NCBI GenBank assembly: GCA_951406725.2 | Contig: OX597814.1 | Coordinates: 128,092,001-128,156,000, forward strand | Direction of reading: 5' to 3' | DNA length: 64,000 nt | DNA from: Octopus vulgaris | Lineage: Eukaryota | Shown here: piece after piece, positions 35,653 to 60,161 of the stretch | Layout: the number at the start of each line of letters is the position of its first letter | How positions within the stretch are numbered: position 1 is the first letter of the stretch | Made by a program: the position numbers and the translations under genes | The notes under the pieces: generated by a model | What the model saw: the letters and a program-made list of their open reading frames with translations, nothing else | Database searches by the model: none | Told to the model about the DNA's origin: nothing

Positions 35653-35703
<51 letters not shown>

Positions 35704-37280: not shown

Positions 37281-37286
37281 TTTATT
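37281..37286 (-). terminator. Candidate polyadenylation signal AATAAA of gene B
   Basis: tttatt on the + strand, about 100 nt downstream of the stop, just before a SINE. Confidence 0.55.
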
Positions 37287-37382
37287 GTTTGTACATACCG
37301 TCAGGCTATAAAAAACAAATTAGACAAAATACAAAATGGCTGAAAGAGCAACTTTTAAAGTCAGCCTTTACATTGACTGTTA

Positions 37383-37488
37383 TTAAAATACAAAAGCTAT
37401 CCAATTAGTTGTTATCATTAAGATAAGAAGTAGAAGAGACATTTTCACATTTGGTCCAGTTGCCACCCGGCAATGTAAAAGATGTAAC
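37383..37488 (-). CDS. Gene B terminal exon: closing Cys and hydrophobic GPI-signal-like tail
   Basis: tttcag|G phase 2; LHLLHCRVATGPNVKMSLLLLILMITTNWIAFVF, stop TAA at 37385-37383. Total CDS 2466 nt = 821 aa + stop. Confidence 0.8.
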
Positions 37489-37544
37489 CTGAAATAAAAA
37501 GAGTATTTTTGAAATAGTTATGTCACTTCTGAAGTTTTATGGAA

Positions 37545-38350
37545 TATTGTGTTGTGTCAAAAGTTTTAAACAATATGCTGGTATCGTATTTGCTTTATTC
37601 ATCAAGTTTCATCAAAAGCAGTCTAGTGTAGCGGCACAAGCAGTCAGCACCATATTGGATGAGATCTCACAGCAGCCATTGCCATCTCTGAGACTGGAGC
37701 GAGACCTCACCTGCATCCATTTGCCATGTGCGAGATCACAACGAGGCTTGCGATGGCAAACTGTATATAAGGGCAAAACAGAAACAGATTGATTTTCTCT
37801 CTCTCTGCTTCTACGCAGTGGCGCTTGCTAAGCACACTTCACTGGCTGTGCTTGTCTGCATGTTGTACCTCCAGAGGCAATGTGCCTGCACTAATGGAGA
37901 TACAACACCACACACACAGCTCGAAATGGTTGCTGAGAGTAACGCACTTCACCTGTTCTGTGAAACTTGTAAATAAACCAGTTGTAAATCACATTTGTCG
38001 GAACCTGAACTACACAAAGAACAAGATATAATGGGAGAAGGCAATATTCTCCTGATATCGTAAACCTTGCCTTCCATTATACTAGCATTCAAAGTAGAGG
38101 CCACCATGTTGCACCATCTGAAGTCGCCTTTCTATCAGTTCTTTAATTCTATGTTCATACCAGTTCTTGTTCTTTGAGGTGAAGAACTCCTTCACTGAAG
38201 CTTCCACTCTCTCTTTGTTGATGAAGTGTTGTGATTGCAGGAAGTGAACCATGAATCAGAACTTTGAATGCTAGGCTGCTTGTGTTGTGGCTTGATGAAT
38301 GAAAGAAATAAGTTACCAAGATATTGCAAAACTTTTGACTCAACACAGTA
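37545..38350. mobile_element. Internally deleted and rearranged mariner element
   Basis: Degenerate TIRs (tgtgttgtgtcaaaagtttt.../...aaaacttttgactcaacacagta); the - strand at 38082-38253 encodes a mariner C-terminus VHFLQSQHF...VEASVKEFFTSKNKNWY...IKELIERRLQMVQHGGLYFEC*. Confidence 0.7.
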
Positions 38351-39862
38351 TTAAAAGAGCAGTTTACATGCATTTAATTTGCATCTCCAAACGAGTCATC
38401 ATCATATCAATTAGCATCCATATTCGTGCATCCATGGCACATTAAAAATACCAGTCGAGCGTGATCGTTACCTGCATCACCTTACTAGTACCTGTGCTGG
38501 TGGCACATGAAAAACATTTGAGCAAGGTCGTTGCCAGTGCCTCTGGACTGGCTCATGTGCAGGTGGCACATAAAAAGCAGCACTTGAGTGTGGCTGTTGC
38601 CAGTACCGCCTGACTGGCCCTCGTGCCAGTGGCATGTAAAAGCACCCACTACACTCTCAGAGTGGTTGGGATTAAGGAAGGGCATCCAGCTGTAGAAACT
38701 CTGCCAGATCAGATTGGAGCCTGGTGCAACCATCTGGTTCGCCAGTCCTCAGTCAAATCGTTCAACCTATGCTAGCATGGAAAGCAGACGTTAAGCGACG
38801 ACGATGATGATGATGATTCCATGCTGGCATGGGCTGGATGGTTTGACAGGGTTTGATAGGTCAGGGGACTGCATCAAGCTCCAATGTTTGATTTGGTATT
38901 GTTTCTATGGTTTCTAAGCCCTTCCTAGCTCCAACCACTTTAGAGAGGGTACAGAGTGTTAATTGGGTTTTTGCTACTGCCACTAATGAGGTCACCTAGC
39001 AGCTTGCAAAACATGACCTCATGATTGGGCAGAAGGATGTGGTATAAAGGGAAAAGGCTTATGTCAGATGTTGACGAGCAAGAATATGGTAGATGAAGAG
39101 AAACAAATGTCTTGCTGTATAAAAACTTAAATCAATATAATTTTTGTTAGTAACCCAAAAGTTAACCAATCTCATCATCATCATCATCATCATCATCATT
39201 ATCATCGTTTAACGTCCGTTTTCCATGCTAGCATGGGTTGGACGGTTCAACCCGGGGTTTGGGAAGCCAGGAGGCTGCACCAGGCTCTAGTTTGATCTGG
39301 CAGTGTTTCTACAGCTGGATGCCCTTCCTAATGTCAACCACTCCATGAGTGTAGTGGGTGCTTTTTACATGCCACCGGCACAGGTGCCAGGGGAGCATGG
39401 CAACAGCCACAATCGGTTGGTGCTGTGACATCATAATATTGTTTATTTACTGTAACCGATATCAGGTTCAGTTCTCATCCCCACTTGTGTTTATTTTAAT
39501 TATCCAGGCTATAGACTGTTCTTGGGAACCCCTGTGTACCAAATCAGTCAAAGAATTCAGGCAAAGAGAAAGTTCCAAGATCCGAACATGCAAGTAGAGT
39601 TTAAAACTATGAGAACTGTGAAAGTAAACCTAGAAGATACACAAACCCTGGTTAATAAAGAAGAATGCAAAATTCTAGTGCCCTCGGGAAATTGGCCTTG
39701 CTTAGTATGCAGAAAAGGTGTCTGTCGGACCCTTAAAGTATGCATCCAGTGTAAAGTATGTATACATCTTTGATGGCAAGTCTGCTCAATCTGACCAAAG
39801 GGTAAACAACCACCACCACTGCCGCCGCCGCCGTCACCACCACCACCGCCACCACCACCATC

Positions 39863-39896
<34 letters not shown>

Positions 39897-40450
39897 AAAC
39901 AGCAACAGCAGCAGCAACAATAATCCTTTCTACTGTAAACACAAGGCCTGAAATTTTGGGGGAGGGCCTAGTTGACTACATCAACCCCCCAGTACTCAAC
40001 TGGTACTTAATTTATCAATCCCGAAAGGATGAAAGGCAAAGTTGATCTCAGTGGAATTTGAACTTGGAAGATAGCAACAGACGAAATACCTATTTCATTA
40101 CAACCCACAAGGGGCTAAACACAGAGAGGACAAACGGATTAAGTCGATTATATCGACCCCAGTGCATAACTGGTACATATTTAATCGACCCCGGAAGGAT
40201 GAAAGGCAAAGTCGACCTCGGCGGAATTTGAACTCAGAACATAGCGGTAAACAGAATACCGCTAAGCATTTCGCCTGGTGTGCTAACAATTCAGTCAGTT
40301 TGCAGCCATAACAACAATAACAATAATAACTACAACAATAGCAGGACTTATCAATGTCTGTGCAACCAACAGTTTGCATACATTGATTCACAACTAACCC
40401 GTTAGAATCATCAACATAAATGCCAAGTATTTATTTAATTTACAACTTAC

Positions 40451-40605
40451 CTGTTGGGTTCACCTTGCATTTTCTTTGACCATTCCAGCTCCAGACTGAC
40501 CCCTTCAAACCAAGTTTGTGCATCTTCAAAAGGATATTCATAACCTTGTTTACACTTACAGGCATAATTACCCAGACCAAAACCAAAACCTGTCAGTGGG
40601 GAACA
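40451..40605 (-). CDS. Gene B exon 7: EGF-like end of module 2
   Basis: ttacag|TGT...ACAG|gtaagt, phase 0-2; CSPLTGFGFGLGNYACKCKQGYEYPFEDAQTWFEGVSLELEWSKKMQGEPNR. Confidence 0.92.
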
Positions 40606-42260
40606 CTGTAAAGAAAAGAATTGTAAAAAGTTTTCTTCTAACGAGAGCCAAAAGTTGGTGCTTGCCATCAGACATAACATACAAACAGTGTGTGCATGTG
40701 CGTGTGTATGTGTGTGTGTGTCTGTGTGTGTGTGTGTCTGTGTGTGTATGTGTGTGTGTGGAAGGGTGAGTACAGAATATTTTGCTGTCATTCTTTTGTC
40801 CTCGATCATCCCTGATTGCACAAACCTATGATCAAGGCCATGAGAATCCAGTCAGATATATAATGGCAGATGGTGGTGATATATAATATAATATCCAAGG
40901 CGGCGAGCTGGCAGAACCGTTAGCACGCCGGGCGAAATGCGTAGCCATATTTCGTCTGCCGTTACGTTCTGAGTTCAAATTTTGCCAAGGTCGACTTTGC
41001 CTTTCATCCTTTCGGGGTCGATAAATTAAGTACCAGTTACGCACTGGGATCGATAAATTAAGTACCAGTTACGCACTGGGGTCGATGTAATCGACTTAAT
41101 CCGTTTGTCTGTCCTTGTTTGTCCCCTCTATGTTTAGCCCCTTGTGGGTAATAAAGAAACAGATATATAATATCCAGTCAGATATATAATAACAGATGGT
41201 GGTGAGCTGGCAGAAATGTTAGCACGCCGGGCGAAATGCTTAGCGGTATTTTGTCTGCCGTTACGTTCTGAGTTCACATTCTGCCAAGATCAACTTTGCC
41301 TTTCATCCTTTCGGGGTCGATTAAATAAGTACCAGTTACGCACTGGGGTCGATGTAATCGACTTAATCTGTTTGTCTGTCCTTGTTTGTCCCCTCTATGT
41401 TTAGCCCCCTGTCAGCAATAAAGAAATATATATAATAGCAGACTCTCATAGTTCAAGAAAGACAGTTCTGCAGTTTCTTGCTGAACAACCTGTACAAATG
41501 ATTCGTTTATAGTGATCAAATGTAAGTGTTGTTCATTAGTTCACTCCCTCCAAGAAATTGATGTTACCTGGGCAGGTGTATGGTGTTCCACTCAATATTT
41601 GTTGGCGTGATCACAGAGCAGGGCAAGATGATGTGTTTTGTTAAAGAACACAATGTACCACCTGGTCCAAGAATTGAAACTATGACCTTCTGATTGTGAG
41701 TGCAACATCCTAGGCCATATTCTCTCACCTGGCACTTCGTCACTTACAATGACAAGGGTTCCAGTTGATCCGATCAATGGAACAGCCTGTTCATGAAATT
41801 AGCATGCAAGTGGCTGAGCACTCCACAGACACATGTATCCTTAACATAGTTCTCAGGGAGATTCAGCATGACACAGAATGTGACAAGGCTGGCCCTTTCA
41901 AATTCAGGTACAACTCATTTTTGCCAGCTGAGTGAACTGGAGTAACGTGGAAAAAAGTGTCTTGATCAAGGACACAGTGCGTTGCCAGGAATCAAACTTG
42001 TGACCTTATGATTGTGAGCCAAATAACATAACCACTAATCTAGGCACCTTCACTTTGCTGTCACCACACATACATGCACACACACTCACGTGGACATAGT
42101 TTAGGGCCTTGAATTACTAGAAATGAACAGGAGTTATAAAACTAAAGTGAATTAAGTGTTGTAATAGATTTTTAAAAAAAACATTTTTTTCTTATTTTTA
42201 CCATAAAACATTCAAATCTACAAAACTGTAAAATATACAAATTATATTTAGAAGCTTTAC

Positions 42261-42375
42261 CTTTGTAGATGGTGGACATAAAGCAGTGTTTTTAAAAGCA
42301 TTAGCAATGTAGAATGGTTGTTGGCACTGATTAATATCTAAGAACTTCAGGTCTATGTCAATCAAAACAATACCT
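42261..42375 (-). CDS. Gene B exon 6
   Basis: ttctag|A...AAG|gtaaag, phase 2-0; GIVLIDIDLKFLDINQCQQPFYIANAFKNTALCPPSTK (GxxxxDIDLxxLDINQC is typical of the GPR158 family). Confidence 0.92.
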
Positions 42376-42684
42376 CTAGAAATAAAGGAAAAATTAAATA
42401 AGATCTGACCAGCACATAAAGCTGTAAATAACATAAAATTATACCAAGCGGATTAACTCTCTGAGTTTAATAGAGTACTTTATGATAGAGTATCTGTGGC
42501 ACTTTCTACTATATAACATAGGGACCCCAAAATGTGGATAGTATCACATTAGACTGTTTTAATCTTTCTCTTTCTACAGTTTTTCTCTTTCTTATTTGTA
42601 GTCTACAAAAAACACTTGACAATGCTCCATATCTAAAAAGAGAAACTTCACTAAACCCTTCATTAAATGAACAATCACTCTCTT

Positions 42685-42716
<32 letters not shown>

Positions 42717-43441
42717 AGAATTTTTTGTGTAATAAGATAAAAAACCAAGGCTGTATAGATATTAGAGCATTTATAGATAGTAAGGTCTTACGCAAAAAAT
42801 TCTTATATACACACGTTGACATAGAACCAATGTTGAACCATTTATTTGCAATATTACCGAATCTGGAACTTAAATATGGTCTGTTTATAGCACTTATTCA
42901 GCATTACTTGACACCTTTGGGTCTCAATGACACCATTATCTCTTATATATATATATATCATCATCATCATCATCATCATTTAGCGTCCGCTTTCCATGCT
43001 AGCATGGGTTGGACGGTTCAACTGGGGTCTGTGAAGCCAGAAGGCTGCATCAGGCCCAGTCTGATCTGGCAGTGTTTCTACGGCTGGATGCCCTTCCTAA
43101 TGCCAACCACTCCGTGAGTATAGTGGGTGCTTTTTACGTGCCACCCGCACAGGTGCCAGACGGAGCTGGCAAATGGCCACGGACGGATGGTGCTTTTTAA
43201 GTGCCACCAGCACAGGGCCAGGCGAGGCTGACAACGGCCACGAATGGATGGTGCTTTTTACGTGCCACCGGCACGAGGCCAGTCTGGGCGGCGCTGGCAA
43301 CGACCATATTCGGATGGTTCTCAGCTGCAATTTCCATTGATCGATTTCGATTCTGATCCTCACTTGCCTCAACAGGTCTTCACAAGTAGAGTTTTGTGTC
43401 CCAATCTAGATGCTAAATTCATTGTACTCATTGCTGCCTCT

Positions 43442-43662
43442 TACAAGGAGGTGCTGAAAAGTTCCTGGTTTGGGGTGCAAGAAAATAAGGAGGATCAGTT
43501 AATTATAATTTTATTCTACATATTCCACTCTCAGATTCACATACTTTTATTGCAATGGTCCTCCAGTTTTTCTAATCCCTGTAAAAGAATTCGGAAGGTT
43601 GGGCCTACAACCAGACCTTTTGGAATACTCTTAAAGCCAGGAACTTTTCAGCACCCCATTAT
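43442..43662. mobile_element. Tc1/mariner-type MITE
   Basis: TIR ggtgctgaaaagttcctgg / ccaggaacttttcagcacc with TA-like ends. Confidence 0.7.
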
Positions 43663-45246
43663 ACATTGCCAACTGTACCTCTTTTTATGGGTTGATGGCT
43701 TATATAGTACCTTCCTTGTCAGGGATCATCAGATCAGATCAGAGTGAAGGCCCCTGTCAAAAGCATTTCCAGGTTAACAAATGCTAAGTAAAGGGATTCA
43801 TTCCTTGCTAAGCACATCTGTACTTTTCCTGTACTTACTTCACTATGAATATGGCATCAGTGGTACCTCTTCCTACCACAAAGCCAAACTACATCTCATT
43901 CAGGTCAAACCTATTCCCAATCAATTTTGTTACAATGGTTCCATCTTTTACTCTCTGCTAAGTTCCCCTTCTTTTCTCCAACATTTCCTTATTGTTATTT
44001 TTACATCTTGAAACTCTTTCTGTTGCCGATTACTTAGCTCTGTAGTATGAAAGGAACCTGCTGACAGTCACACAGACTGAGGCAAGTAGAGTTATAGCTC
44101 TTGTTAGGAACCCAGTAAAACAGTCGTACTAGAATGTTATACACTTTTCACAGTAAGAATTGTTAAAACGTATCAAATAACTCTAAACATTTTTGTTATT
44201 CAGAATATCAGGATTATAGAGGCAAGTAGGGAAATGGCAAAGTTCTTTGAGCTAGGACAAAATACTTTGTGGTATTTGTTCCTGTTCACTATATTCAGAG
44301 TTCAAATCCTGCCAAGCTTATCTTTGCCTGTCAACCTTCTGGTGTCGATCACATAAAAGTGCCTTGCCATGGATGTGGATTAGTAAAATAGAATATTGAC
44401 AAAATGCCTTGTGGTAATAGTTCTGGTGGATCTCTATGTTCTGAGTTCTTGGTTGGTAGACTTAATCTTTTGCTCAGCTTAAAACCACCACCTCACACGC
44501 AGTGTACTATTAGAAGAGTTTACTTTGTGGCAAGCATTTGGACAAGATTTCTGGTTTGAGGAAAACTTCCACCAGAGGTCATCATCATATCATCATCATC
44601 ATTTAACGTCCACTTTCCATGCTGGCATGGGTTAGACGATTTGACTGGAACTGGTGAGCCTGAGAGCTGCACCAGGTTCCAGTCTGATTTGGTATGGTTT
44701 CTACTGCTGGATGCCCTTCTTAATGCCAGCCACTCTAAGAGTATAATGATTGCTTTTTACATGCTGCCAGCATTGGTACTATTTACATGATGCTGGCAAC
44801 AGCCACAACTACAATTTCATAGGTGCCAGCAGGGTGCTATTTACATGACACCAGCAATAGCCATAACTATGCTTTCACGAGTACCATTTACATGGCACTG
44901 GTAACAGCCATAACTATGACTAGAATTTCACTTGGTTTGACAAGTCTTCTCAGCACTGCCTTACCAAAGGCTTCAGTTAATTGTCATTGCCTCCATGAGG
45001 CCCAACATTCGAAAGATCATTCTACCAGCAACGGCCATGATTACGATTTCATGGGTACCATTTATGTGACACAGGCAATAGACACAACTATGATTTCACT
45101 TGGCTTGATGAGTTTCCTCAAGCACAAAATAAAGGGTCACAAATGTTGCCCTTCCCTATTCATGAAATTGTACAAGAACAAAGAAAAAGGACCTGGAAAT
45201 AAGAATTTATAAATCTGAAAAAATAATAAATAAACTGTTAACTTAC

Positions 45247-46081
45247 GTAAACTTTACAGAGGAGAGATATATATTCCGACTAAAAAATGGAACACTATAA
45301 GTGATGACCCATTTGTCAATTCTTCCATCACAACGATAAGTTGGTCCACTCCATCGACCAGACTTAAAAGTAGGTGCTTTGTAAACCAAATCACTGTATT
45401 TGAAGTGGCTTTGATATGTTCCATTGATATTAGATCGCACAAAGGCTTTAATATGGAATTCTTTCAATTCACTTATATTTGATCTAAAACGTTCTTTTGC
45501 TGTTTTGAACCCTGGTGTATTCAAATAACTCTCTTTCAATCCTGCAGCATCTATTGCCCAAAAACCTTGATCGTTTCTATAAGCCCAAGGTCCAAAGAGG
45601 GCCTTTTCTGTTCCATCAGCTCCAATAAATTGGTAGCTGTCAAAAAGTACAGCAGAAGAAAGTATTTTGTGGTCTGACATCACGTTAGCTAAAACCTCAG
45701 CAAATATGTGATCTTCTTGAAGTTGTTGTCCTCCATCCAGTATTCCAAAATGTACATTATACTCATTGTTTTGTAAAAAACTGCTCAGAAAATGCGCCAG
45801 ATGTAGAGCTGTTCTGGCCTGAGATTCAAACTGTTTTTCAGCTCCATATATTACTGACCCAGACAATGACAAGCTTGATGGAGGTTGTTTATGACAGTTT
45901 ATGTTATTTATAACACCCATTTTTTTCATAAGAGTTTTTATCTTAGCAGCATTACTTTTATCATAAGCATTTCGACGATGGCGTGAAGTGCTACGTCTGA
46001 TATTTCTTTTCGTATTTAATGTACTCTGCTGTTGCCTGTACATTGTTGTATTGTAATGTTTTCCCAGATGTACTTTGCGAT
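45247..46081 (-). CDS. Gene B exon 5: polybasic linker and Cache-like module 2
   Basis: tttcag|AT...TTAC|gtaagt, phase 1-2; QARTALHLAHFLSSFLQ...FAEVLANVMSDHKILSSAVLFD...LFGPWAYR...GRWSGPTYRCDGRIDKWVITYSVPFF. Confidence 0.92.
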
Positions 46082-46864
46082 CTGAAATACAAAATGTCAA
46101 TGATAAAGTTAGCATTCTATATACTATTTGCATTTGGTGGGAATGTGAAAGCGTTGAAGATGTATGGTTATTAAGGAATTTCAATTCTAGCTCACATACA
46201 TCCATTACCAATGTCAACTAGATTACACACTGAGATGTGGTGCAACCACTTCCAAATAGAAGATGGCTGAAACCCCAAGACATCTTTTACTGAGAGTCAG
46301 CCACTTGCATCCAGGCTTGTTTGGATATCATTCTTATTCTGCAAGACTGTCTTTAAATGTGACATGCAGGCCACTGATACCAACTTATCAAGTTGGAAAG
46401 CCTTGACAGCAGATCACATCAGGGAACGACACATTGGGTTGTGAAATCTTATTATCAAGAATTACAGGTGATCATGGTGGCAGAACATTTGTTTATAGGC
46501 CTGTTTACAGCAAGACCTATGACCTATGACTTTGGTCTTGGTCTGCAAAGGATTAACCTGGGACCACCACTACCAACAACAACAACAACAATAATTCTTT
46601 TAGAGACTCAACTCAGAGAACCTGTCATGCTGGTGAAGCTCCCTATTATCATTGAATGGTACAGTAGCACTTCAGCAGACCAAAATATCACAGGCACTAA
46701 CCATTCCCATGTAATTCTGTTATTAATTTATACTATATTTTATACTATATTATTTTATACTAGCTTAAAAGCCGCACTTTGTGTGGACTTTTGAGCTAGC
46801 TCCCGTGGAGATCTAATTGGGCCTGTGGCCCTAAACTAAAGAGAGCTAAATAGCATGACTATAA

Positions 46865-47052
46865 TACAGTTCTATATTTAAGAGATGAGGAATTATGTAC
46901 ATTATTTACAATTGATGGATATTTGTCCTCATCTTGTTTGTTGTTACCAGAACATTTCTGTTGATATACCCTCCAACCTTCATCAGGTGTCTTGGGGAAA
47001 TTTCGAACCTGGGTTCTCATTCCTAAGGTATTTTACGATGTTATTATAATTA

Positions 47053-47107
<55 letters not shown>

Positions 47108-47255
47108 CATTATTATCATTATCATTATTGTTATTATTCAGGTCACTGCTTGGAATCGAACTCGGAATCTCGGGGTTAAGAGCATGTGCTACTAACCCCA
47201 AGATTCCAAGTTCGATTCCAGGCAGTGACCTGTAATAATAATAATAATAATAATG

Positions 47256-47298
<43 letters not shown>

Positions 47299-47395
47299 AC
47301 CTGATGAAGGTTGGAGGGTATATCAGCCGAAATGTTGTATTAACAAAAACATGATGAGGACAAATATCCATCAATTGTAAATAATGTAAATAATG
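46865..47395. mobile_element. Fold-back element with tRNA-like centre, (TAA)n spacers and a hammerhead motif in each arm
   Basis: TSD agcatgactataa at 46852-46864 and 47396-47408; central hairpin 47139-47232; ACAC-CTGATGA-AGGTTG...CAGCC-GAAA at ~47297-47340 and its inverse at ~46950-46990. Confidence 0.8.
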
Positions 47396-47986
47396 AGCAT
47401 GACTATAAGATGTCTATAATGACAATATGAGAATTAATTCTGTAAAGCAATCATTCTATTGCTCCAGTCCCAAGTTGAATTCCAACTGTTGGTCAATTTG
47501 TCTCAAAGTTCTTATCTTGACATAAAATTAATGAAGCAGATGTCATTTATCTCCCCCTTGATCTCTGCTGTCATCTGACAAAGGCCAACCAAGATGGTGG
47601 GAATTAGCCAAGATTTATCTGCTAGAAATAGCACCCCAAATGTTTTAAATCATATTCCAATGCTTGATGTTCAAGAACCAAATGGAGGGCATATTTTCAA
47701 TCTTGGGATAACTCTGACCCCAAAAAGGTATATATCCATGTAGAGCAAATGTAGACTGACATACAGGGGTCCCAGATGGACAGACAGAAGTTCACTTTCA
47801 TTTTTATAGATGATGTTGTCTGTGAACCATAATGTCAGTGGTTATAAGGTTCCAAGAGGCCTGCATTTCTCATGGCAAGAGTGACAAAGAAGTATCTCGG
47901 CAAGTTGGGAAGAATACTGCAAAGTATTTTTGCTAAATGCACTGGTTTATCAGTAACTGTATAACTTTCCCCCGTTCCTCTCTCTT

Positions 47987-48043
<57 letters not shown>

Positions 48044-48262
48044 CCACATACCCCCTCCCCCCACACGCACATTCACAGATACTCACATGTGCACTCACAC
48101 ATACATATTCTTTTCTACTCTAGGCACAAGGCCTGAAATTTTGGGGGAGGGGAGGTAGTTGATTAGATTGACCCCAGTATGCAACTAGTCCTTAATTTAT
48201 CAACCCTGAAAGGATGAAAGGCAAAGTCGACCTCGGTGGACTCACACATACATATTACTTAC

Positions 48263-48428
48263 GTTGAATGGGAGTGCATGTGAAACCATACTCGTATTCC
48301 TCTTGAGTAGCTTGTTCTATTAGTGATCCTTGGAATGGTGGTTTAATTTGGGATGGGTATTTATAGCCTTGTTTGCAGACACATTTGTAACCTCCTCGTT
48401 TAAAGCCATAACCAGATACATGCTTGCA
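48263..48428 (-). CDS. Gene B exon 4: EGF-like/Cys-rich end of module 1
   Basis: tttcag|TGC...CAAC|gtaagt, phase 0-1; CKHVSGYGFKRGGYKCVCKQGYKYPSQIKPPFQGSLIEQATQEEYEYGFTCTPIQ. Confidence 0.9.
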
Positions 48429-48759
48429 CTGAAAAATTAAAATAACATCTTTTAGATATTAGGATATACACATATGTAGGCGTAAGAGTGGCTGTGTGGT
48501 AAGTAGCTTGTTTACGAACCACATGGTTCCAGGTTCAGTCCCACTGCATGGCACCTTGGGCAAGTGTCTTCTACTATAGCCTTGGGCCGACCAAAGCCTT
48601 GTGAGTGGATTTGGTAGACGGAAACTGAAAGAAGCCTGTCATATATATGTGTATATATGTATATTTGTATGTGTGTGTATATGTTTGTGTGTCTGTGTTT
48701 GTCCCCCCAACATCGCTTGACAACTGATGCTGGTGTGTTTACGTCCCCCGTAACTTAGT

Positions 48760-49432
48760 GCCATTTTAGCAGTCGCTTGTCCAGCCTGGAACTGTAAAAG
48801 CCTGGCAAGTAAAATCTTGGAAAGCCTATTTTACAGCATCGTCGGAATTAAATCTTTTTTCTATCAAAAAGTTATTTAAATTCTGGAAGAAGTGGTAGTC
48901 AGTGGAAGCAAGATCAGGTAGTATAGTGGATGACAGAGAATTTCCAACTCAAACTTCTGTAGTTTCGCCAATGTCATTTTTGCGATGTGTGGTCTGGCAT
49001 TGTCTTGCAATAAAATAGGAGTGGATCTGTTAACTAATTTAGGCTGTTTTTTGTAAGTTTTTGCATCATTTGGTCCAGTTGGCTGCAGTATACTTTGGCT
49101 GTGATTGATGAGCCATGATTAACGAAACACACACCATCAGACCACCAAACACACACCATCAGTTTCTTTTGATGAATTTTGCTATTTGTACTGTGTTTTG
49201 GTGGCTCGTCTTTGTCCAACCATTATGCTGAACATTTACGGTTGTTGTATTGGAAACATTTCTCATCACATGTTACAATTTGATTCAAAGATGATTAATT
49301 TTTGTGATGAGAAAGTAGCATAATGCAGGCTTCCAAACGTTGCTGTTTCTGATTTTCATTGAGTTCATGTGGAACCCACTTATCCAAATTTTTCACTTTA
49401 CCGATTTGAACTAGGTAAGTGAATATTGTAAG
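48760..49432 (-). mobile_element. Mariner transposase remnant
   Basis: WVPHEL, KLMVCVWW, QDNARPH and PDLASTDY-like motifs with frameshifts; abuts and truncates a SINE at ~48760. Confidence 0.85.
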
Positions 49433-49672
49433 TGAGGGCATCCAGCTGTAGAGAATCTGCTACAACAAATTCTATCTCACCCATGCAAATATGGAAAAGT
49501 GAACATTAAATTTTGATGATGATGACAACACTGATGATGATGATGACATTTTTGGAGATGGGAATATTGGTACACTCTAGTAGTGGTGTGAACCAAAGGT
49601 ACAGTAATGTAACGTGGGTATGGCAGTCTAAGATAAACGTGATATATAACAGTTCTCCCAGTATAATTATAC

Positions 49673-49799
49673 CTTTGTTGTTGGTTTACATCTGTCAATT
49701 CCAGCAAGATAATTTGGTAAAGGATTTCCAATGCTTATAGGACAGGCATTAAAATCAATTTTTCGAAAGTATGTATCCATGGTAACCAATGCCACTATT
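49673..49799 (-). CDS. Gene B exon 3
   Basis: ttctag|A...AAG|gtataa, phase 2-0; IVALVTMDTYFRKIDFNACPISIGNPLPNYLAGIDRCKPTTK; not in the ORF track. Confidence 0.88.
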
Positions 49800-50156
49800 C
49801 TAGAAAAAATAAAATAAAAACAATAAAAATATACTCACATACACAATCAAAAACAAAACGAAGTAAAATGGCATATATTTGTAATTGTAAAATTTCAGCT
49901 GCTTCACAGAATGACAAAAAATATAGGAAATACTAAGAAAGAAAAAAGGTTCAATTTGTTGAAAAACATTTGAACACATAGACGCAGGAATGGCTGTGTG
50001 GTAGGTAGCTTGCTTACCAACCACATGGTTCTGGGTTCAGTCCCATTGGGTGGCACCTTGGGCAAGTGTCTTCTACTATAACCTTGGGCTGACCAAAGCC
50101 TTGTGAGTGGATCTGGTAGACAGAAACTGAAAGAAGCCCATTGAACATATATATAT

Positions 50157-52235
50157 GGTCGTTATATTGACGACATTATCGGTGCCACCTCACTCTCCCG
50201 CGAACATCTAGATTCCTTCCTCTCTTTCGTCCAATCTTTCCATCCAGCCCTCCACTTCACTTCCACTATCTCCAACACCTCTGTCTCCTTCCTCGACATT
50301 TCGGTTAGCATTCTTCACTCCACTCTTACCACCTCCATTCACTACAAACACACAGACTCACACTCATACCTCAACTTCTCTTCCTCCCACCCAGAACACA
50401 CCAAGCTTTCCATCCCCTATTCCCAATTCCTCCGTCTACGTAGGCTCTGTAGTGACGACCATGACTTTGAGACTCAGTCTCAACGTATGGCTCACCACTT
50501 CACCCTACGTGGATACCCCCTCACCACTATCCACACCGCCCTTTGCCAGAGCACGGTCCGTGGACCGTGTATCTGCTCTCTCTCCCCGAACCCGCCCTGT
50601 AGTCTCCCGCCTCCCTTTTCCCCTCACTTACCACCCCACGACCCTACGTCTCCAACGCACCATTCTTCGAGCTTTCCGTCATCTCCAGTCCGACCCGTCC
50701 ACTTCACACCTCTTCCCTAACCGACCCCTCCCCTCTTTCAAACGAGCCCACAACCTTCGAGACCTTTTGGTCCATAGCTCCTTCCCTGACCCTACCTCCC
50801 AACCCGGCTCGTTCCCCTGCTCCCGCCCACGTTGCCGCACTTGCCCTTACCTGTCCAACACCACCCGCCTCACTAGCACCCACCATCGACCCTATCCCAT
50901 CATCCACTCCTTCACCTGCACCTCCAGCAATATTATCTATTGCATCTCTTACTCTCTCTGCAATTCCTTGTACATCGGACAAACGGGACGCCGCTTGGCT
51001 GACCGGTTTGCGGAACACCTTCGTGACATCCACCTTGCGAACGACACACCGGTCTCACGCCATTTCCGCTCCACCGGTCACTCCTTGCAACACCTATCTG
51101 TGTTCGGTTTGTCCTTACACAGAGGCCATCCGGATTCCCGTTTGCGCCGTGAACAGGAATTAATCTTCTCTCTTCGCTCTTATACGCCATTTGGTCTCAA
51201 CTCTCCCCCCTCCTCATCTAACCCCCTTTCCCCCCTCCTCACCTATCCTTTCTCCCCCGACCCCTACTTCTTCAGTCCTTCATCCTTTCACCCCTACTTC
51301 TTCAGTCCTTCATCCTTTCACCCCTACTCCCCTTCCCTTCTTCCCTCTTTCTCCCTCCCTCTTCCCCTTCCCTCTGCTCCCTCACTCCCTCTCTCCCCTT
51401 CTCTCTCCCCCTCTCCCTCTTTCCTCCTTCATCCCCCTCATCCCCTTCCTTCTCCCCCATCCTCTCCTCTCCCCCTTCTCCTCCCCCTCTTCTTCCCCTC
51501 CCCTTCTCTCCCCCTCTTCTCCCCTCCCCCTCTTCTCCTCACTACACCACATGACTTTACACATCACATCACATCACATATGATGTGCCATACTAATACA
51601 CACACCAACTAATACATACTAATACGTACTAATACATACTAGTACATACTAATACTTACACCAACCCTATACATACACACGTCCAGACCCCGCATACGCA
51701 CTTATACTCTCTCTCACACACACACACACACCTATACATACCAATACGTACTAATACATACTAATACATACTAATACATACACCAACCCCATACATACGC
51801 ACGTCCAGACCAATCTTACGCACTAATACTCTCTCATACACACACACACACACACACACACACCCTTATACATACTAATACATACACCAACCCTATACAT
51901 ACACACATCCAGACCCCTCCCACGCACTTTTAGCTGGTCCCTCAACCCATTTATCAACCCTATTATCTCCCCTTATTTCGCTCTCGCGTCTCATGTTTGA
52001 TCTTTGACCTCTGGCCGAAATCAGATCGCCATGTTGATTCGTTAGCTACTGCACGCATTTTTTTCTCTCCTTCTTTCTGTGTTTTTCTCTCTCCGTGTAG
52101 CTTTCTGTTGAAGAGCGTAGGCTCGAAACGTTAAAGACTTGTTTTATTTATATTTCCTGAGCGCCATACTAATACAATTGTTCGTTTGTTTTCCACCTGC
52201 CTTCGTCTTTTGTTTATTTTCATAAAGCTTCCCGT
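50157..52235 (+). mobile_element. 5'-truncated Penelope-like retroelement (RT C-terminal part, GIY-YIG endonuclease, 3' pLTR-like end)
   Basis: RYIDD...FLD...YKHTDSHSYL...HPEHTKLSIPYSQFLRLRRLCS; frameshift near 50545; then CxRxRCxTC and IIYCI...LYIGQTGRRLADRFAEH. Inserted in the (TA)n of a SINE whose head is at ~49980-50150 and tail at ~52240-52480. Confidence 0.92.
52101..52136 (+). ncRNA. Minimal type-I hammerhead-ribozyme-like motif in the Penelope 3' end
   Basis: CTTT-CTGTTGA-A-GAGC-GTAG-GCTC-GAAA-CG-TTA-AAG: stem I, CUGNNGA variant core, stem II hairpin, GAAA, palindromic ACGT stem III. Confidence 0.7.
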
Positions 52236-52289
<54 letters not shown>

Positions 52290-53501
52290 TCTCCCAAACA
52301 TCGCTTGACAACCGATGCTGGTGTGTTTACATACCTGTAACTTAGTGGTTTGGCAAAAGAGACCGATAGAATAAGTACTACGCTTACAAAGAATAAGTCC
52401 TGGGGGTCGATTTACTTGACTAAAGGAAGTGCTCCATCATGGCCACAGCCAAATGACTGAAACAAGTAAAAAAAATAAAAGGATATATCCAATAATTCTA
52501 AAACAGAAAAAAAAATACTTCTAGCTGTTCAGAGATGTAATTTTATGATTAAAATGAAATTCTAGATTTAAATTTTTTGAACATATTCTTTATGATTCAT
52601 AAAGTAAGAGCAGTTTTTGATGCCTCACTGAAATAATTAAATTTAGAAGTAGCAATGTGTGTGTGTGTGTGTGCACTTTTAACTGCTAGTGGTCAAACCA
52701 AAGTTATTGCTCAATCAAGCATTGAAGGAGTCTGACCTAGAAACAATAACTTCTTTCTGTCAATCTCTTTAAATATAATCACACTCATACACACGCATGC
52801 ACACACATACACAAACAAATATACATTTATACATACATACATTTTCAGGAGTGTTCTATTGTTTCCCTTTTCTCTGTCTTTGTTCCAAAAGCAGACTTTT
52901 TAATTGAATTAATTGGTGTCTCTATGGTGGCAAAATCTATAGTTATTATTTACCATAAAAGAGAATCCATTATATTTTGTAAGAAGTCAAGATACCTTTT
53001 TATATTGAAACAGAGCATCTTCATGTCTGATTGCTGGGATGTGGTGAGGGTCACTCCTGTATTGAGTGCTACATACTCTTTGTGTTAGGGGTCTAGAGGG
53101 GTCCAGGGCAATTGCCCCTATTCACCACTCTATACATCCAACCTTATATATATATATATATATATATATTATGGAGATGTACTTGCATAGCAAGTGACCT
53201 GATCAGAGATTGAGTGCTGAAACAAAAACAATTGCAATGCAGAAGGTGTTTATAACCATTTAAAAACAATAAAAAACTGTTAGATTCACTTCAACATTCA
53301 AATTTAATTTGTCAAAATATTTTTGTTGCTTTGAGATCGCAACCTGTTCACTGACAAAATTCTGTGCTGAATCTCTGAATTTTGTCAGTGAACAGGTTTC
53401 GGTCTCAAAGCGATGAAAATATTTTGACTAAATTTAAATGTTGAAGTGAATTTAACAATTTTTGTATGTTTTTAAATGGCTTATAAACACCTTCCATGCT
53501 G

Positions 53502-53550
<49 letters not shown>

Positions 53551-55242
53551 ACCTTATATACCTGTATATATATATATATCTATATATGCATATATGCACA
53601 TGCACATATGTGTAAAGGACATTACCAGTGGTGCAAATAGCATGAAATAAGTAAACAAATAGGTATGCAAACAAGAAAAAAACAGAACAAGTAAACACAG
53701 AGAAAGGACCCTTCATCAGGTGTCGGCTGTCTATCTACTCCTTATTTCGAGCATTCAATGACAATATGAGTCTTCAAAGACAGTTGCTCCCATAAATTCT
53801 AAAATAAAATTTAGGATTTATGGAGGGTCAAAGTTGGGAACAAAAACATGACAGTGGAGACATACCAGGAAACCAAACAAAGACAAACATGGAGGGTTGT
53901 TAGACCAGAATGAGAGGAAAATATTGTACGCTGGGAAAAACATTTTTTGAAAAGAGAAGAGATAGAAGTATATATATATTCTACACAAGAAAACTTTTTT
54001 TGTGTGCACTGCCAATTGAGAAGCACTAAATTTTATCGTTAGAGGTATGAAACTGAACAGTATCATCGGTTGATAACTGATGAAGAAATTATGGACCTTC
54101 TGTTTGTCTCTCATTTGTTTTTACATTCAGTATACGTTGCATCATTTGTTTATGCATTTTTTCATTCATCATGCAACACACACCAAATTTGTATTAACAA
54201 GTAAGTTTTTTATATACCCATGTGATTCTCTCTCTCTCTCTCTTTTACCCTCATTCTTTCCCCTTTTCTTTCCTTCATCCTGTCACTCCTATTCTAGCCT
54301 TTCAACTTACTCCTTTTCTTTCTCTCCCTCTTGTATTCCTAGCATTCCTCCTTCCCCTTTTTTCTCTGTCACTCCCTCTTCCTGCTGTCTTTCTACTCTG
54401 CCTGCTGCTGTCATGTGACCAGTGACCAGTTCCCCTTTTTCTTCCTTTCTTAGACTGGTTCCTTAGCTGACCATTTGCAAAGTCAGTCTCCTTCATTCTT
54501 TCCCATTTTCTTTCTCTCACCCTCTCACTTCTATTCTATTTTAGAGTTTTGTCTGCTATTTCCAGTGTGGCAGTATCTCTTGGATACCCTAAATTATAAT
54601 CTTAATAATAATTATTATCTTTGAAGGTTTTTATTCCCATGCAGATCACTTGATAAGATCGATATTTAAATTAACGATCTTATCCTTATTTATATAAATT
54701 TTTAATTTATTTCGTCATTGTATTTACTGCGGTGATGTTTCAACCATATCGCACGAGGAGTTATAAGGTGGGCAATTTAAACTGGTTGTGTTGCATATGT
54801 GCATATATATGTATGTATACGTTCGTATATGTAAGTATTCGTATGTTATATGTATATATATGTGTATTTATGTTTCTTTCTGCATATATTCTACTGAAGA
54901 GGCAAAGCATTTCTTATGCAAAGCCAGAAATCCGGGATCTGGAATTATCCAGTAATTTTTTGCTAATTTATTTTGTCCTTTTGTCTTCTCTCCTGGTGCT
55001 GCATGAACATTTAATGTGGTTTTAGAGTCAGGTTTTGGCTGCTATTTCTAGCGTGGCGCTATCTCTTAGATACCTTGAATCATAATTTTAATAATAATTA
55101 TTACCTTTGAAGGTTTTTATTCCCATGCTGACCATTTGATAAGATCGATATTTAAATTAATGATCTTATCCTTATTTATATATATATATATATATACATA
55201 TTTATATAATGTGTGTATGTATATATATATATATATATGTAT

Positions 55243-55276
<34 letters not shown>

Positions 55277-55536
55277 GCATGATAGACCTCCACATAGTTT
55301 ACATCTACTAAATTCATTCACAAGGTGTTGATTAGTACAGGGCTATAGTATAAGACACTTGCCCAAGGTGTCACACAGTAGGACTGAACCCAAAACTGTG
55401 TAGTTGAAAAGCAAGCTTCTTAACCATACAACCACGCTGCACCTATAAAAAATATAAATTGAATATAAGAAGCAGAATATAAATACTGTATTAAACAACC
55501 GAAACTTTTATGAAAATATTTAACCTTCTGTTTTAC

Positions 55537-55882
55537 CTTGGTCTCCTCATATGTGTATAACGTGAATATCTTGGCATGAAATCAATCACAGGTGAGACAG
55601 CAGAGACTATCCATTCATTTGACTTTCCACAGTCAAAATATGGTTGAGTAAACCTCACAGGAAGTATTTCATCCATGAAATGCTGACCAGGAACACTTGG
55701 TCCAAAGAAACCTGAAATATTAAAATCTTCACTGTCGAACTGTCCTGGTCTGCTTGAATATTTTATACCCACAGTATATTTATATTTTATCAAAGAATCT
55801 TTTTCATTACGCACATCTGGCATATTCCATAAAGAGTACCAAATATTTGTTTTACTCCTTCTGCTTGTATAATTGAAGAGAC
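55537..55882 (-). CDS. Gene B exon 2: Cache-like module 1
   Basis: ttctag|GT...CCAAG|gtaaaa, phase 1-2; includes VRFTQPYFDCGKSNEWIVSAVSP (PYxDC..W motif of the GPR158 family). Confidence 0.9.
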
Positions 55883-56049
55883 CTAGAAAAAAAAATAAAA
55901 GACAATAAATTACATTGTAAAAAGTCAATGAGAGAAATATTAAACTTATAAAACTATTATTATCATTGTCATTTGCCAAGGTTGACTTTGCCTATCATTT
56001 TTGCAGGGTTGATAAAGTAGTTACCAGTTGAGGACTAGGGTTGATATAA

Positions 56050-57760
56050 AAGAAATAGTAATCTGGAAAGGACCTGGCCTGAATGAAGTACAAGGTTGCA
56101 TAACTGGATGACTGCCTGCAGCTAGGTCATTTTCTTGCCTGGATGACAAGTGGGTGAATGCTGCTATGCTTCAAGGATCCCTTGAAAGGGAACTTGGCAT
56201 TAAATTTTTGACCTGTTACTTGTTTACCACTTATATGGAAGCTTATGACTGGTGTTTTGGCAGAAGAGTTATACAGCCATCTGGAAAGTAATGATCTACT
56301 TCCAGAAGAATGGAAAAGATGCAGGAAACAATGTAGGGCAACAAAAGATCCCTTATTAGCTGATAAAATGATAATTAGAAATTGTAGACACAGATTGACA
56401 GGACTGAGTGTAGCATGGCCGGATTACAAAAAAGCATATGACATGGTACCACATAGTTGGTAAAACAAAGAGCATATTTGGAATAACAAAAAACATGGAG
56501 AAAATGCTTAATGAAAGTATGAAATATTGGAATATTGAACTAATCAGGAAAAAACAAAGACTCAGAGAAGTGAATATCAGACATGAAATATTCCAAGGTA
56601 ATAGCTTATCTCCATTACTATTCATATTGGCTATGATACTGTGCACTATGATACTACAAAAAGTTAAAATTGCTTACGATTTGGGAAAAGGAAATGGTCA
56701 GATAAATCATCTCCTTTTCATGGAGATGATATAAAGGTTTGTGCGTAAAATGAGAAAAGTTTGAAAGTCTTGTACATACTATCTGGGTTTTTTCAAATGA
56801 TGTAGGTATGGAATTTGGGGTAGAAAAGTGTGATATTTTGAAAATGAAACAAGGAAGATTTAAAAGAAGCCAGGGAAGTGAAATGCCAAATGAGCAAACA
56901 GTGAGAGCGGTCAAGGACAGTGGTTTAAGTATTTGGGAATACTGGAAGCAGATGAGATAAAAAATGAAGAAATGAAACAAATTGCCAGTAGGGAGAACAT
57001 AAAGGGATTCAGAAAATGATTGCAGTCAAAACTGGATCCTGAAAATCTTATTGAAGCAATTCAATAAATTCAAGAGCAGTATCCTTAATCAGATATGGTG
57101 TTGGAATTATAGTCTGGACCAAAAATGATATAAAGAAACTTGACAGGAAAACTAGAAAGTTGTTGACAATGAATAGAGCCTACAATCTGAAAGTTCATAT
57201 CAACCAGTTGTACAGAGTGGAAGAGGCTTGCTAGCAGTAGAAGAATGAGTACAGATGGAGAGAAAAAGCCCAGTAGAGGGCACAGAAAACCTACTAAGGA
57301 CAGTGAATAAAGAATGGGTGATCAAATGTATAATGGGAGTAAAAGACAAGAATGAAATACAAGGAGTGCAAGTCAGACAGATTAAAGGGGAACCTTTGCA
57401 TGGTCAATTTTGGATGGCCACTGAAGATGTATGTGGAACAAAATTCTGGGCTTGGTTTAAAAAGGGGCAATTAAAAAAAAGAAATAGAGAGCCTAATTGT
57501 AACAGCCCAGGATCAAGCAATAAAAACAAACCACTTGAGAAAAAATACATATGGAAAGAATGTGTCAGAAAAATGGAGAGCCTGTGAAACTTAGAATGAG
57601 ACAGTGGCACACATTGTGGAAGAATGCACCAAGTTGGCGCAGGAAGAGTATAAGAAATGGACACATGACCAGTTTGTAAAAGTTTTACACTGGAAACTTT
57701 GCCAGAAATGGGGATTTGAAGTTGGAAAGATGGTACAATCACCGAGTTGAAATAATAATG

Positions 57761-57813
<53 letters not shown>

Positions 57814-57817
57814 AATA

Positions 57818-57848
<31 letters not shown>

Positions 57849-58670
57849 TAATAATAACAGACATGACAGAGTTGGAACTTACATACATTGGAAGCTATGC
57901 CAACATTATGGAATAACAACAGAAAAAAGATGGTATAGGCACACACCAGAAAAGGTCACAGAAAACGAGAAAGCAACCATACTCTGGGATATGCCGATAC
58001 ACACAGATAGAGAAATTAAGGCCAACAGACCAGATATAGTTGTCAGAGACCATGAAGAAAAAAAATGCTTTCTAATTGATGTATCAGTACCGGCAGATGA
58101 CAACGTGTCTCTAAAAGAAATGGAGAAACTCTCAAAATACAAAGACCTGGAAATAGAGGTAACTAGAATGTGGAATCTGAAAACAGAAACAATTCCTATC
58201 ATAGTAGGTGCATTAGGCATGATAAAAAAATATTCAGACAAATACATAACAAAAACACCAGGACTTACAAACACATATAACATACAGAAAATTGCACTAC
58301 TAGGCACTGCACACATCCTACGCAGAACACTTTCCATACAATAACCATCAGAGCATCACAACAAATCACAGCACATACCCAAGGCACACAGAGCTGCGCT
58401 CGGTAGTGAAGTGAAAGCACGCTATAAAAATAAAAATAAAACTACTGAATAATAATAATAATTGGACAAATGCCTGAAGGAGATTGAAATAGAATGCCTG
58501 GTGGAGCTCGTGCAGAAAGTTTGTCTCATAGAGACAGCAAGGATTATCAGGAGGGTTCTAAGCACTGGAGACACTGCTGAAAACTTGTGGATACCTAAGG
58601 TTACAGGCAGTAACCCACTACCCACATAATTCCTATCAGGAATAAGACCGAACTTGAGCCAAATCAAAAT
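56050..58670 (+). mobile_element. Decayed R4/Dong-like non-LTR retrotransposon (RT), interrupted by a younger relative
   Basis: PVTCLPLIWKLMTG, DYKKAYDMVPHSW, IFQGNSLSPLLF, INHLLFM with stops and frameshifts; C-terminus resumes at ~58463 (LVQKVCLIETARIIRRVLS); followed by (TAA)n. Confidence 0.8.
57856..58450 (+). mobile_element. 3' end of R4/Dong-like element with restriction-like endonuclease
   Basis: WDMPIHTDREIKANRPDIVVRD...CFLIDVSVP.D.N...KEMEKLSKYKDL (PD-(D/E)xK RLE); flanked by (TAA)n. Confidence 0.85.
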
Positions 58671-58944
58671 AATAATAATAATAATAATAATGATAATAAT
58701 AATAATAATAACAATAATGGTTTCAAATTTTGCCATGAGGCAGCCATCTTGGGAGAAGGGATAAATTGATTACATCGCCCCAGTGTTTCACTGGTATTTA
58801 ATTTATCGAGCCCGAAAGGATGAAAGACAAAATTAACCTTGGTGGAATTTGAACTCAGAACGTAAAGACGGCTGAAATGCCACTATGCATTTTACCCAGC
58901 ATGCTAATGAATCTGCCAGCATACCACCTTAGTAATAATAACAA

Positions 58945-58975
<31 letters not shown>

Positions 58976-58977
58976 AA

Positions 58978-59418
58978 CCAATCGATATAAACGTATCTGT
59001 CAAGACCTACCAAAAACTGAGTAAATATAAAGATCTTGAAATAGAAATCAGCAAAATGTGGAACCTGAAGACTAAAACAATACCTGTTGTCATAGGTGCC
59101 CTGGGAATGATAGCAAAAGGGGCTGATTGCTACCTAACTCAGGTACCAGGTAACCCCAAAATGGCAGAAATTCAAAAGATAGTGCTCATAGGAACTGCTC
59201 ATATCCTACGCAAAATACTTTCTATGTAATCTCAAGTTTGCACCATCATAATTTTCTTATGGTTTTTTAAACATTCACTAGTGCAACACTAAGTACAAAA
59301 CCAAATATATGGTACCCTAGGCATAACACCAACATGAACTTCCAACTTGTTGTCTCTTGATGTCTCTGGGTGAAACTTGGAGCCAACTTGTAGAAATGTA
59401 AAGCAAAAATCAAACATA

Positions 59419-59420
<2 letters not shown>
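58978..59420 (+). mobile_element. Second short R4/Dong-like 3' fragment
   Basis: PIDINVSVKTYQKLSKYKDLEIEISKMWNLKTKTIPVVIGALG...IQKIVLIGTAHILRKILS; (TAA)n on both sides. Confidence 0.8.
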
Positions 59421-59485
<65 letters not shown>

Positions 59486-59545
59486 TATAATAATAAAAAT
59501 AACAGCATTAGTCATTGTAGGAGAAAAAAAATGCTTTATGTTTAC

Positions 59546-60161
59546 CTGTTCCCATGTCAACAACTTTTGTGGATCTCATTGTTGGTTCACGCAAAAAATT
59601 TTCTGAATCTCTTGTATCATCGTATCTCCAGGCTGATGGTGCAAACAAAGGTAGAGTTTTATTAAAAGCTAAGAACCTCAACCAGTTTGGATAATGACAG
59701 TTGTTATCAAAAAATATGGAACTTCCATTGACAAGGTTAGGGTGAGAGTTAACATTAGCTGTGACACTCATATAAAGATACAACCATCCAGGCAGATTAA
59801 GAAAATCCTTCGATTGATTAAACCTTTGCAGCATGAAACTGTGAAAGTAGGCTCTATTTAATGCTAAATTGTGGAGATGAACTAATCCAGTTCTGTTGCG
59901 ATAGAAGACTTTGCTCAAGAGTTGGTTGTATCGTGGTATCTGTGAAACAGTGTCTGGAGATAGGAGAAGATCAGATTTCCGTTTCGAATGGCAGTTCTTT
60001 TCAGTGATACTTTTCATATAGCTATCAAGGTGATCAAACTTGTCTTTTTTCTGCCAGTCCCATAGTGAGCTCTGACTAAGTCTTATCATTCCTACGATGA
60101 GAAGCAAACTGTACAGGGTCAGAGGAGATGCTGAGCCAAAGAACTTATATCTTATCGACAT
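59546..60161 (-). CDS. Gene B coding exon 1: signal peptide and start of GPR158/179-type extracellular module 1
   Basis: ATG at 60161 with an in-frame TGA two codons upstream; acceptor ttttgcag before 60202; hydrophobic N-terminus (LTLYSLLLIVGMIRLSQS); donor ACAG|gtaaac, phase 1. Confidence 0.88.

Follow-up and report, generated by a model that had tools for sequence, protein, structure and literature searches.

The locus and its gene model

A stretch of 64,000 nucleotides (nt) of Octopus vulgaris DNA (assembly GCA_951406725.2, contig OX597814.1, positions 128,092,001 to 128,156,000 of the forward strand), hereafter called the window and numbered from its first letter, was analysed with respect to a gene located on its minus strand between positions 37383 and 60161. 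A first-pass annotation made from the letters alone had proposed that this gene specifies a doubled ligand-binding ectodomain of the GPR158/GPR179 type which lacks a seven-transmembrane (7TM) region and carries a tail resembling a glycosylphosphatidylinositol (GPI) signal. The analysis presented here shows that the gene is spliced into a stop exon, that its product consists of two Cache+EGF modules homologous to the ectodomain of these receptors, that no 7TM is associated with it, and that this organisation is conserved across a whole family.

Translation of the splice model yielded the 821 amino acids (aa) previously proposed, specified by eight coding exons (Table 1) with GT-AG borders at 7/7 introns and a single stop codon. 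The intron following exon 6 occupies the same phase-0 position, between a K and a C codon, as the one following exon 3. Compared with RefSeq entry XP_029641233.1 (O. sinensis LOC115216171, uncharacterised), the product shows 4 substitutions in 821 residues; this entry was used in place of the window translation as query for structure models and database searches. O. vulgaris CAI9715912.1 is identical to the last 627 residues of the window translation. An in-frame stop is present directly upstream of the ATG, and the N-terminus is therefore complete; a splice acceptor approximately 40 nt 5' of the ATG suggests an additional non-coding exon. An isoform X2 of 619-627 aa, starting near Met195 within the exon-1 region (59546-60161) and without signal peptide, is present in both the RefSeq and the O. 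vulgaris annotations.

Some details of the first-pass annotation required correction. The number of residues following the last Cys is 28 instead of 27, and although the motifs D[IF][ND]xC and G[YF]GFxxGxYxCxCxxGYxYP each occur twice, PYxxC is restricted to module 1 (PYFDC, 286), the corresponding sequence of module 2 being PTYRC. The AATAAA expected about 100 nt after the stop was retrieved close to that distance.

Two Cache+EGF modules in a single chain

The Pfam family PF22572 matches two stretches of the protein (E 6e-42), and the profiles of modules 1 and 2 align with each other over 301 columns (HHalign, E 3e-38); the resemblance of two modules to GPR158/GPR179 is not due to chance. The AlphaFold model (predicted local distance difference test score, pLDDT, 90) contains a Cache/PDC fold in each module, its top Foldseek match being GPR179, so that the doubled ectodomain proposed earlier finds support in Pfam, HHalign, AlphaFold and Foldseek alike. 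Each module also contains six EGF-like cysteines, every one of which is conserved in 94-97 of 97 sequences. The predicted template modelling score (pTM) of 0.89 is obtained across a flexible linker, meaning that the model places both modules confidently against each other.

The ectodomains of GPR158 and GPR179 are reported to dimerise via two Cache helices (PMC8611064, PMC11437087), and in the octopus family the helices matching these are more conserved than the remainder of the protein. The two modules are predicted from the model to pack rigidly, and would in this way mimic, within one chain, the two-chain ectodomain dimer of GPR158/GPR179. Module 1 possesses a ninth, apparently unpaired cysteine (C155, encoded in the region 59695-59700), present in 44 of 62 spiralian-like sequences but missing from the four most frequent residues at this position in arthropods, which could provide a link to a partner.

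With GPR158 (mGlyR), GPR179 and the invertebrate CG31760-like or mGlyR-like receptors the octopus protein shares a Cache domain with N-terminal helices and a six-cysteine EGF-like domain. A Cache disulfide pair (C57/C290 and C481/C669 in octopus) and the EGF calcium-site positions (human D314/D316; octopus D336/N338 and D710/N712) are also common to it and GPR158/GPR179. It differs from the latter two in having two modules per chain, no 7TM, no cytoplasmic part and a GPI-type tail. Furthermore, a four-cysteine loop located after the EGF-like domain, which in GPR158 contacts extracellular loop 2 (PMC8611064), is present in 20 of 21 receptors and, in either module, in 0 of 96 family members. The octopus protein is therefore a GPR158-type ectodomain which, by its lack of a 7TM and of this docking loop, stands outside the receptor family.

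Alpha2delta and CACHD1 are likewise animal surface proteins in which several Cache domains are combined with a cytoplasmic part that is small or missing; the fold match to them is weak. By this analogy, the octopus protein might be a lipid-anchored, processed auxiliary subunit that assists trafficking or tuning of an ion channel or of a GPR158-family 7TM receptor and would itself need no ligand. In contrast to alpha2delta and CACHD1, it has EGF stalks, a different ancestry and no VWA insertion (no VWA domain was found in a Pfam scan at E 0.1, and two Cache+EGF modules suffice to explain the model). We regard such a role as improbable.

Transcripts and the search for a 7TM

Spliced RNA contigs were obtained from 4 of 24 listed runs, belonging to four studies, for window positions 35500-49900, a region encompassing exons 3 to 8. 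The joints between exons 3-4, 4-5, 5-6, 6-7 and 7-8 were present in all four runs, with contigs spanning the stop codon; among the joints listed, exon 7 is thus connected to the stop exon and not to 7TM exons. The contigs end near the AATAAA (at 37305, 37300, 37267 and 37132), which cannot by itself show where the RNA ends.

A 7TM profile built from 15 related receptors was then compared with 2149 six-frame pieces of the window. No 7TM exon was recovered (best score E 0.27), in agreement with the absence previously noted, and the same profile retrieved, at E <= 5e-12, 5/5 control pieces of 50 aa spiked in from a receptor that had been left out of the profile but is closely related. Within the family, 0 of 224 members match the 7TM profile or possess three hydrophobic segments, and a Pfam scan of the octopus protein detected neither a class C 7TM (PF00003) nor a cytoplasmic part binding regulators of G protein signalling.

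A conserved protostome family

The earlier suggestion that uncharacterised invertebrate relatives might already be in databases proved correct. Many two-module orthologues were retrieved, with named homologues from molluscs, annelids, flatworms, a rotifer, insects, crustaceans, chelicerates, a myriapod, a tardigrade and a nematomorph. Members, among them Drosophila CG31195, have 775-1030 aa, two PF22572 stretches and a similar tail; CG31195 and the entries named 'GPR158/179 extracellular domain-containing protein' belong to the same family, these being automatic names only. CG31195 and its arthropod relatives differ from the fast-evolving octopus copy in their short linker, mostly without a furin site. 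The label CG31195 is given to a Bactrocera protein in the supplement of PMC4652233, and this protein visibly matches D. simulans GD20036.

Three groups are separated in a tree of 64 modules: the 22 first modules lie together on one side of a branch (100/100), the same holds for the 22 second modules (100/97), and the third group comprises the 20 receptor ectodomains (97/65). In a quick tree, ecdysozoan first modules are grouped separately from spiralian ones, and among second modules those of arthropods are distinct from those of spiralians. Since both sets of modules divide by lineage, the doubled protein is older than the ecdysozoan-spiralian split. Two further paralogues with the same tail are present in the octopus genome (Table 1); molluscs have several paralogues, and the gene studied here belongs to a faster-evolving mollusc branch.

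These results bear on the possibility that the gene is a model artefact, or a decaying fragment of a class C G protein-coupled receptor (GPCR) with missed 7TM exons. The joints listed are only part of the set (230 joints and 1797 loose ends lie beyond them), so that a minor alternative splice is possible, and exons 1 and 2 are located outside the region covered by reads. Against this explanation stand the exon 7-8 joint in 4/4 runs, the window and 224 orthologues devoid of a 7TM, two intact paralogues sharing the tail, and module clades that predate the ecdysozoan-spiralian split; it is largely refuted and can be considered extremely improbable.

No functional study of the family was found by concept or identifier in the literature searched (subscription papers and bioRxiv supplements excluded), and hence no already characterised orthologue. 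Mentions are incidental: as a mapping marker (PMC3020225), as a gene which lies inside a Syp intron and carries an insertion in its 5' untranslated region (UTR) (PMC3934907), as a miR-184 target (PMC5727397), and in two proteomes (PMC12753784, PMC4652233). Where the evolution of class C receptors has been surveyed, Cache+EGF is considered solely as a GPCR module (PMC12716839). The family is thus real, conserved and apparently unstudied, being known in databases by automatic names only. Several entries (P0073, P0075, P0102, P0161, P0171, P0176 and P0265) are named FRAS1-related protein, adrenodoxin, GPR158, GPR179 or 'putative GPCR' though they lack a 7TM. A 625-aa relative from two Haliotis species (P0342, P0479, P0480) ends after the module-2 Cache, without second EGF-like domain or tail, and is possibly a secreted form. 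Entry P0465 is a fragment of a GPR158-type receptor with leucine-rich repeats preceding its Cache domain.

The C-terminal tail

Hydropathy and pattern analysis of the octopus protein indicated a signal at the N-terminus and, towards the C-terminus, small omega residues followed by a spacer and a hydrophobic end, with no internal transmembrane segment. In the family, an Arg follows the last Cys in 93 of 96 proteins; small residues come next, then a spacer and finally a hydrophobic end. The GPI-type pattern was assigned to 83 of 96 aligned proteins and to 96 of 108 further matches of an insect search, as judged by a heuristic without negative control. The tail described in the first-pass annotation is therefore present and shared by most orthologues, and GPI anchoring of the octopus protein is predicted from it. 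In a published table, the bee orthologue XP_624805 is listed with a signal peptide, a lipid anchor (DeepLoc) and a positive NetGPI result; it was detected with eight unique peptides in midgut brush-border vesicles, in 3/3 larval and 1/3 adult replicates (PMC12753784). The Bactrocera orthologue is reported, with two peptides, in male accessory-gland secretion (PMC4652233); the same list includes endoplasmic reticulum proteins, and its presence there is thus no proof of shedding.

Alternatively, the tail could remain uncleaved and serve as a single transmembrane anchor, with hardly any of the protein in the cytoplasm and the ectodomain unchanged. For the bee orthologue, Phobius predicts a transmembrane helix (o783-801i) in contrast to the GPI call (PMC12753784), and many orthologues end with a few basic residues past the hydrophobic stretch. 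However, NetGPI and DeepLoc assign a lipid anchor to the same bee protein, small residues are conserved just past the last Cys (position +3, A59/S20/G9; position +5, A67/G9/S7; of 96), tails cluster at 25-32 residues, and the octopus tail ends hydrophobic, which makes a transmembrane anchor rather improbable.

A furin-type site in the linker

The linker between the modules, which is polybasic in spiralian members as a further difference from GPR158/GPR179, contains the sequence RHRR in octopus. The motif R-x-[KR]-R is present in the linker of 63 of 96 proteins, compared to a mean of 18 and a maximum of 26 in shuffled sequences. Its distribution is strongly uneven, comprising 60 of 61 spiralian-like versus 2 of 34 arthropod-like proteins, where unnamed proteins were grouped by similarity rank and one spiralian-like row lacking both flanking cysteines as well as the nematomorph were omitted; arthropod linkers have a median length of only 62 aa. 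Because this motif corresponds to the established furin consensus, we infer that a furin-type protease may cut the linker in molluscs, annelids and flatworms.

Putative ligand pockets

Human GPR158 numbering was carried over to the octopus protein by sequence alignment through an invertebrate receptor. R173, Y269 and E271 are glycine-pocket residues of mGlyR. S172 is described as a GPR158 pocket residue (PMC11437087). The positions of S172/R173 are occupied by N145/G146 in module 1 and L559/S560 in module 2, an Arg at the R173 position being found in 0 of 97 sequences; this is another difference from GPR158/GPR179. Y269/E271 correspond to Y287/D289 in module 1 and to T666/R668 in module 2. The module-1 pocket positions are nearly invariant whereas their module-2 equivalents vary (Y in 51/97, D in 48/97), octopus module 2 having the changes W609G, Y666T and D668R. 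A Trp is present at the position of G609 in 60 of 62 spiralian-like sequences, and the RNA contigs show no other letter than the octopus G609 codon. Judged by these residues, module 1 keeps a conserved acidic/aromatic pocket and module 2 of the octopus copy has evidently lost its own.

Each module shares the Cache/PDC fold with bacterial dCache_1 domains (3LIC, 3LI8, the amine-binding PctD, McpX and PacA, and the amino-acid-binding PctA and Tlp3), with a match to 3LIC at the sequence level (E 5e-4 to 7e-4) and with conserved aromatic and acidic residues in common at the likely module-1 pocket positions. The alignment extends over no more than about 120-160 of the roughly 260 target residues, equivalent to one subdomain, and the octopus protein differs by its EGF stalks, its lack of a signalling output and the presence of neither ligand motif in full. 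The bacterial amino-acid motif includes a carboxyl-binding Arg (PctA R126) two residues ahead of a conserved Trp (PMC8915833); mapped by the W-Y/W-F motif, its equivalent is an Arg in 0/97 first modules (N218 in octopus) and 2/97 second modules (T607). The PctA amino-group contacts Y144/D173 have likely equivalents in module 1 (Y287 in 94/97; D/E329 in 90/97, placed by local spacing rather than superposition) and are variable in module 2. Considering the missing Arg at the R173 position together with these other pocket comparisons, the link to glycine carried by the first-pass annotation is weak and the ligand is probably not glycine. Among bacterial structures whose ligands are known, those nearest to the octopus protein bind quaternary amines (PMC10589655). 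The amine sensors PctD, McpX and PacA rank high structurally, in a comparison made at the level of the fold and not of the individual AM-motif residues (PctD R103, D133, W155, F188, M215, S217, D235); an amine ligand is, by this analogy, a lead only.

The pockets may also be incidental to a surface scaffold in which loops of the Cache domains bind an extracellular protein or a proteoglycan for adhesion or matrix attachment. GPR158 is reported to bind glypican-4. GPR179 is reported to bind pikachurin via its Cache loops while being unresponsive to glycine (PMC11437087). Module 1 contains long conserved insertions absent from receptors (N167 in 97/97, R179 in 93/97, D181 in 96/97 and R310 in 97/97), and the variability of the module-2 pocket and the occurrence of orthologues in gut brush border and accessory-gland secretion, beyond neurons, also suit a scaffold. 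Conversely, near-invariant module-1 pocket residues over approximately 600 million years are hard to explain without a ligand, and no partner is known. A scaffold role appears somewhat unlikely.

Neighbouring gene and intron contents

A neighbouring plus-strand gene (gene A, Table 1) comprises exons with several EGF repeats (Pfam) and a last exon specifying an acidic, proline-rich tail with tyrosine motifs; it is probably a single-pass EGF-repeat membrane protein, arranged tail to tail with the GPR158-type gene. Intron 3 harbours open frames resembling a Penelope-type element (no Pfam match at E 0.01), presumably the end of a reverse transcriptase and GIY-YIG nuclease motifs. Broken pieces of retroelements without long terminal repeats are located in intron 1, including a 197-aa frame without Pfam match in which we assume a restriction-like endonuclease motif.

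Table 1 Features of the locus (window coordinates) and octopus paralogues (genome coordinates).
Feature	Position	Strand	Residues and content
Exon 1	59546..60161	-	aa 1-205; signal peptide and first half of module-1 Cache; N-termini annotated in three octopods agree
Predicted signal peptide	60066..60161	-	~aa 1-32; hydropathy peak aa 7-29; helix 13-34 in structure model
Exon 2	55537..55882	-	aa 206-320; remainder of module-1 Cache, with conserved WY and PYFDC motifs
Exon 3	49673..49799	-	aa 321-363; last Cache strand and beginning of EGF-like domain 1
Exon 4	48263..48428	-	aa 364-418; remainder of EGF-like domain 1
Exon 5	45247..46081	-	aa 419-696; linker and module-2 Cache
Furin-type site RHRR	45972..45983	-	aa 452-455; inside low-confidence linker; candidate cleavage
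Exon 6	42261..42375	-	aa 697-735; last Cache strand and beginning of EGF-like domain 2
Exon 7	40451..40605	-	aa 736-786; remainder of EGF-like domain 2
Exon 8	37383..37488	-	aa 787-821 and stop; last EGF cysteine C793 and tail
Predicted GPI signal	37383..37463	-	small A796-T797-G798, polar spacer, hydrophobic end 805-821
AATAAA, candidate polyadenylation signal	37281..37286	-	starts 97 nt past stop
Gene A	4503-28946	+	EGF repeats
Intron 3 frames	50145-51220	+	resemble Penelope-type element
Intron 1 pieces	56100-59230	+	broken non-LTR retroelements
197-aa frame in intron 1	57751-58344	+	
Paralogue L002	G000:C1:136.97 Mb		groups with the gene studied; locus-protein assignment by identity rank and contig size
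Paralogue L003	G000:C19:63.62 Mb		conservative copy; locus-protein assignment by identity rank and contig size

Discussion

The architecture of the protein is secure, and in this respect the first-pass annotation was upheld; besides its link to glycine, which did not hold up well, that annotation had overlooked the putative cleavage site in the linker, the asymmetry of the modules and the fact that the cysteine loop which docks onto the 7TM is lost. Since the protein lacks a cytoplasmic part, it would have to act via a partner or by ligand capture. We propose, with a probability of roughly 45%, that it is a GPI-anchored tandem Cache+EGF protein which serves as co-receptor or ligand trap for a small amine-bearing molecule, signalling then needing a separate transmembrane partner. 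According to this proposal, a GPI anchor on module 2 would hold the protein at the cell surface, and the two modules would constitute a hard-wired ectodomain dimer of the GPR158/GPR179 type. In spiralians, cleavage of the linker by a furin-type protease would result in two associated chains, module 1 being retained by module 2. Module 1 would represent the working sensor pocket, while module 2, degenerate in this octopus paralogue, may mainly act as anchor and dimer partner. Against parts of this proposal stand the Phobius helix in the bee tail, with regard to the GPI anchor, and, with regard to an amine ligand, an amino-acid sensor that scores about equal to PacA.

A bolder form of the co-receptor proposal, which as a whole we consider unlikely, would see the family as ancient, protostome-wide GPCR ectodomains freed from their 7TM: GPI-anchored, pre-assembled Cache heterodimers, furin-cut in spiralians and sheddable, whose module 1 takes up a transmitter or nutrient of the amine type and either delivers it to orphan GPR158-family receptors or keeps it away from them. 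The family would then represent a missing co-receptor layer in invertebrate class C signalling.

Several insect and fluke database entries named GPR158 or GPR179 are, in the light of these results, not receptors. The invertebrate GPR158-family receptors are orphans, and ligand recognition by the Cache domains of GPR158/GPR179 is only partly understood. A conserved, membrane-free two-module protein lends itself readily to expression, ligand screening and structure determination, and for its fly orthologue CG31195 an insertion allele in the 5' UTR is reported to exist (PMC3934907). What animal GPR158-type Cache domains bind, and whether such an ectodomain works in trans without a 7TM, thereby become testable.

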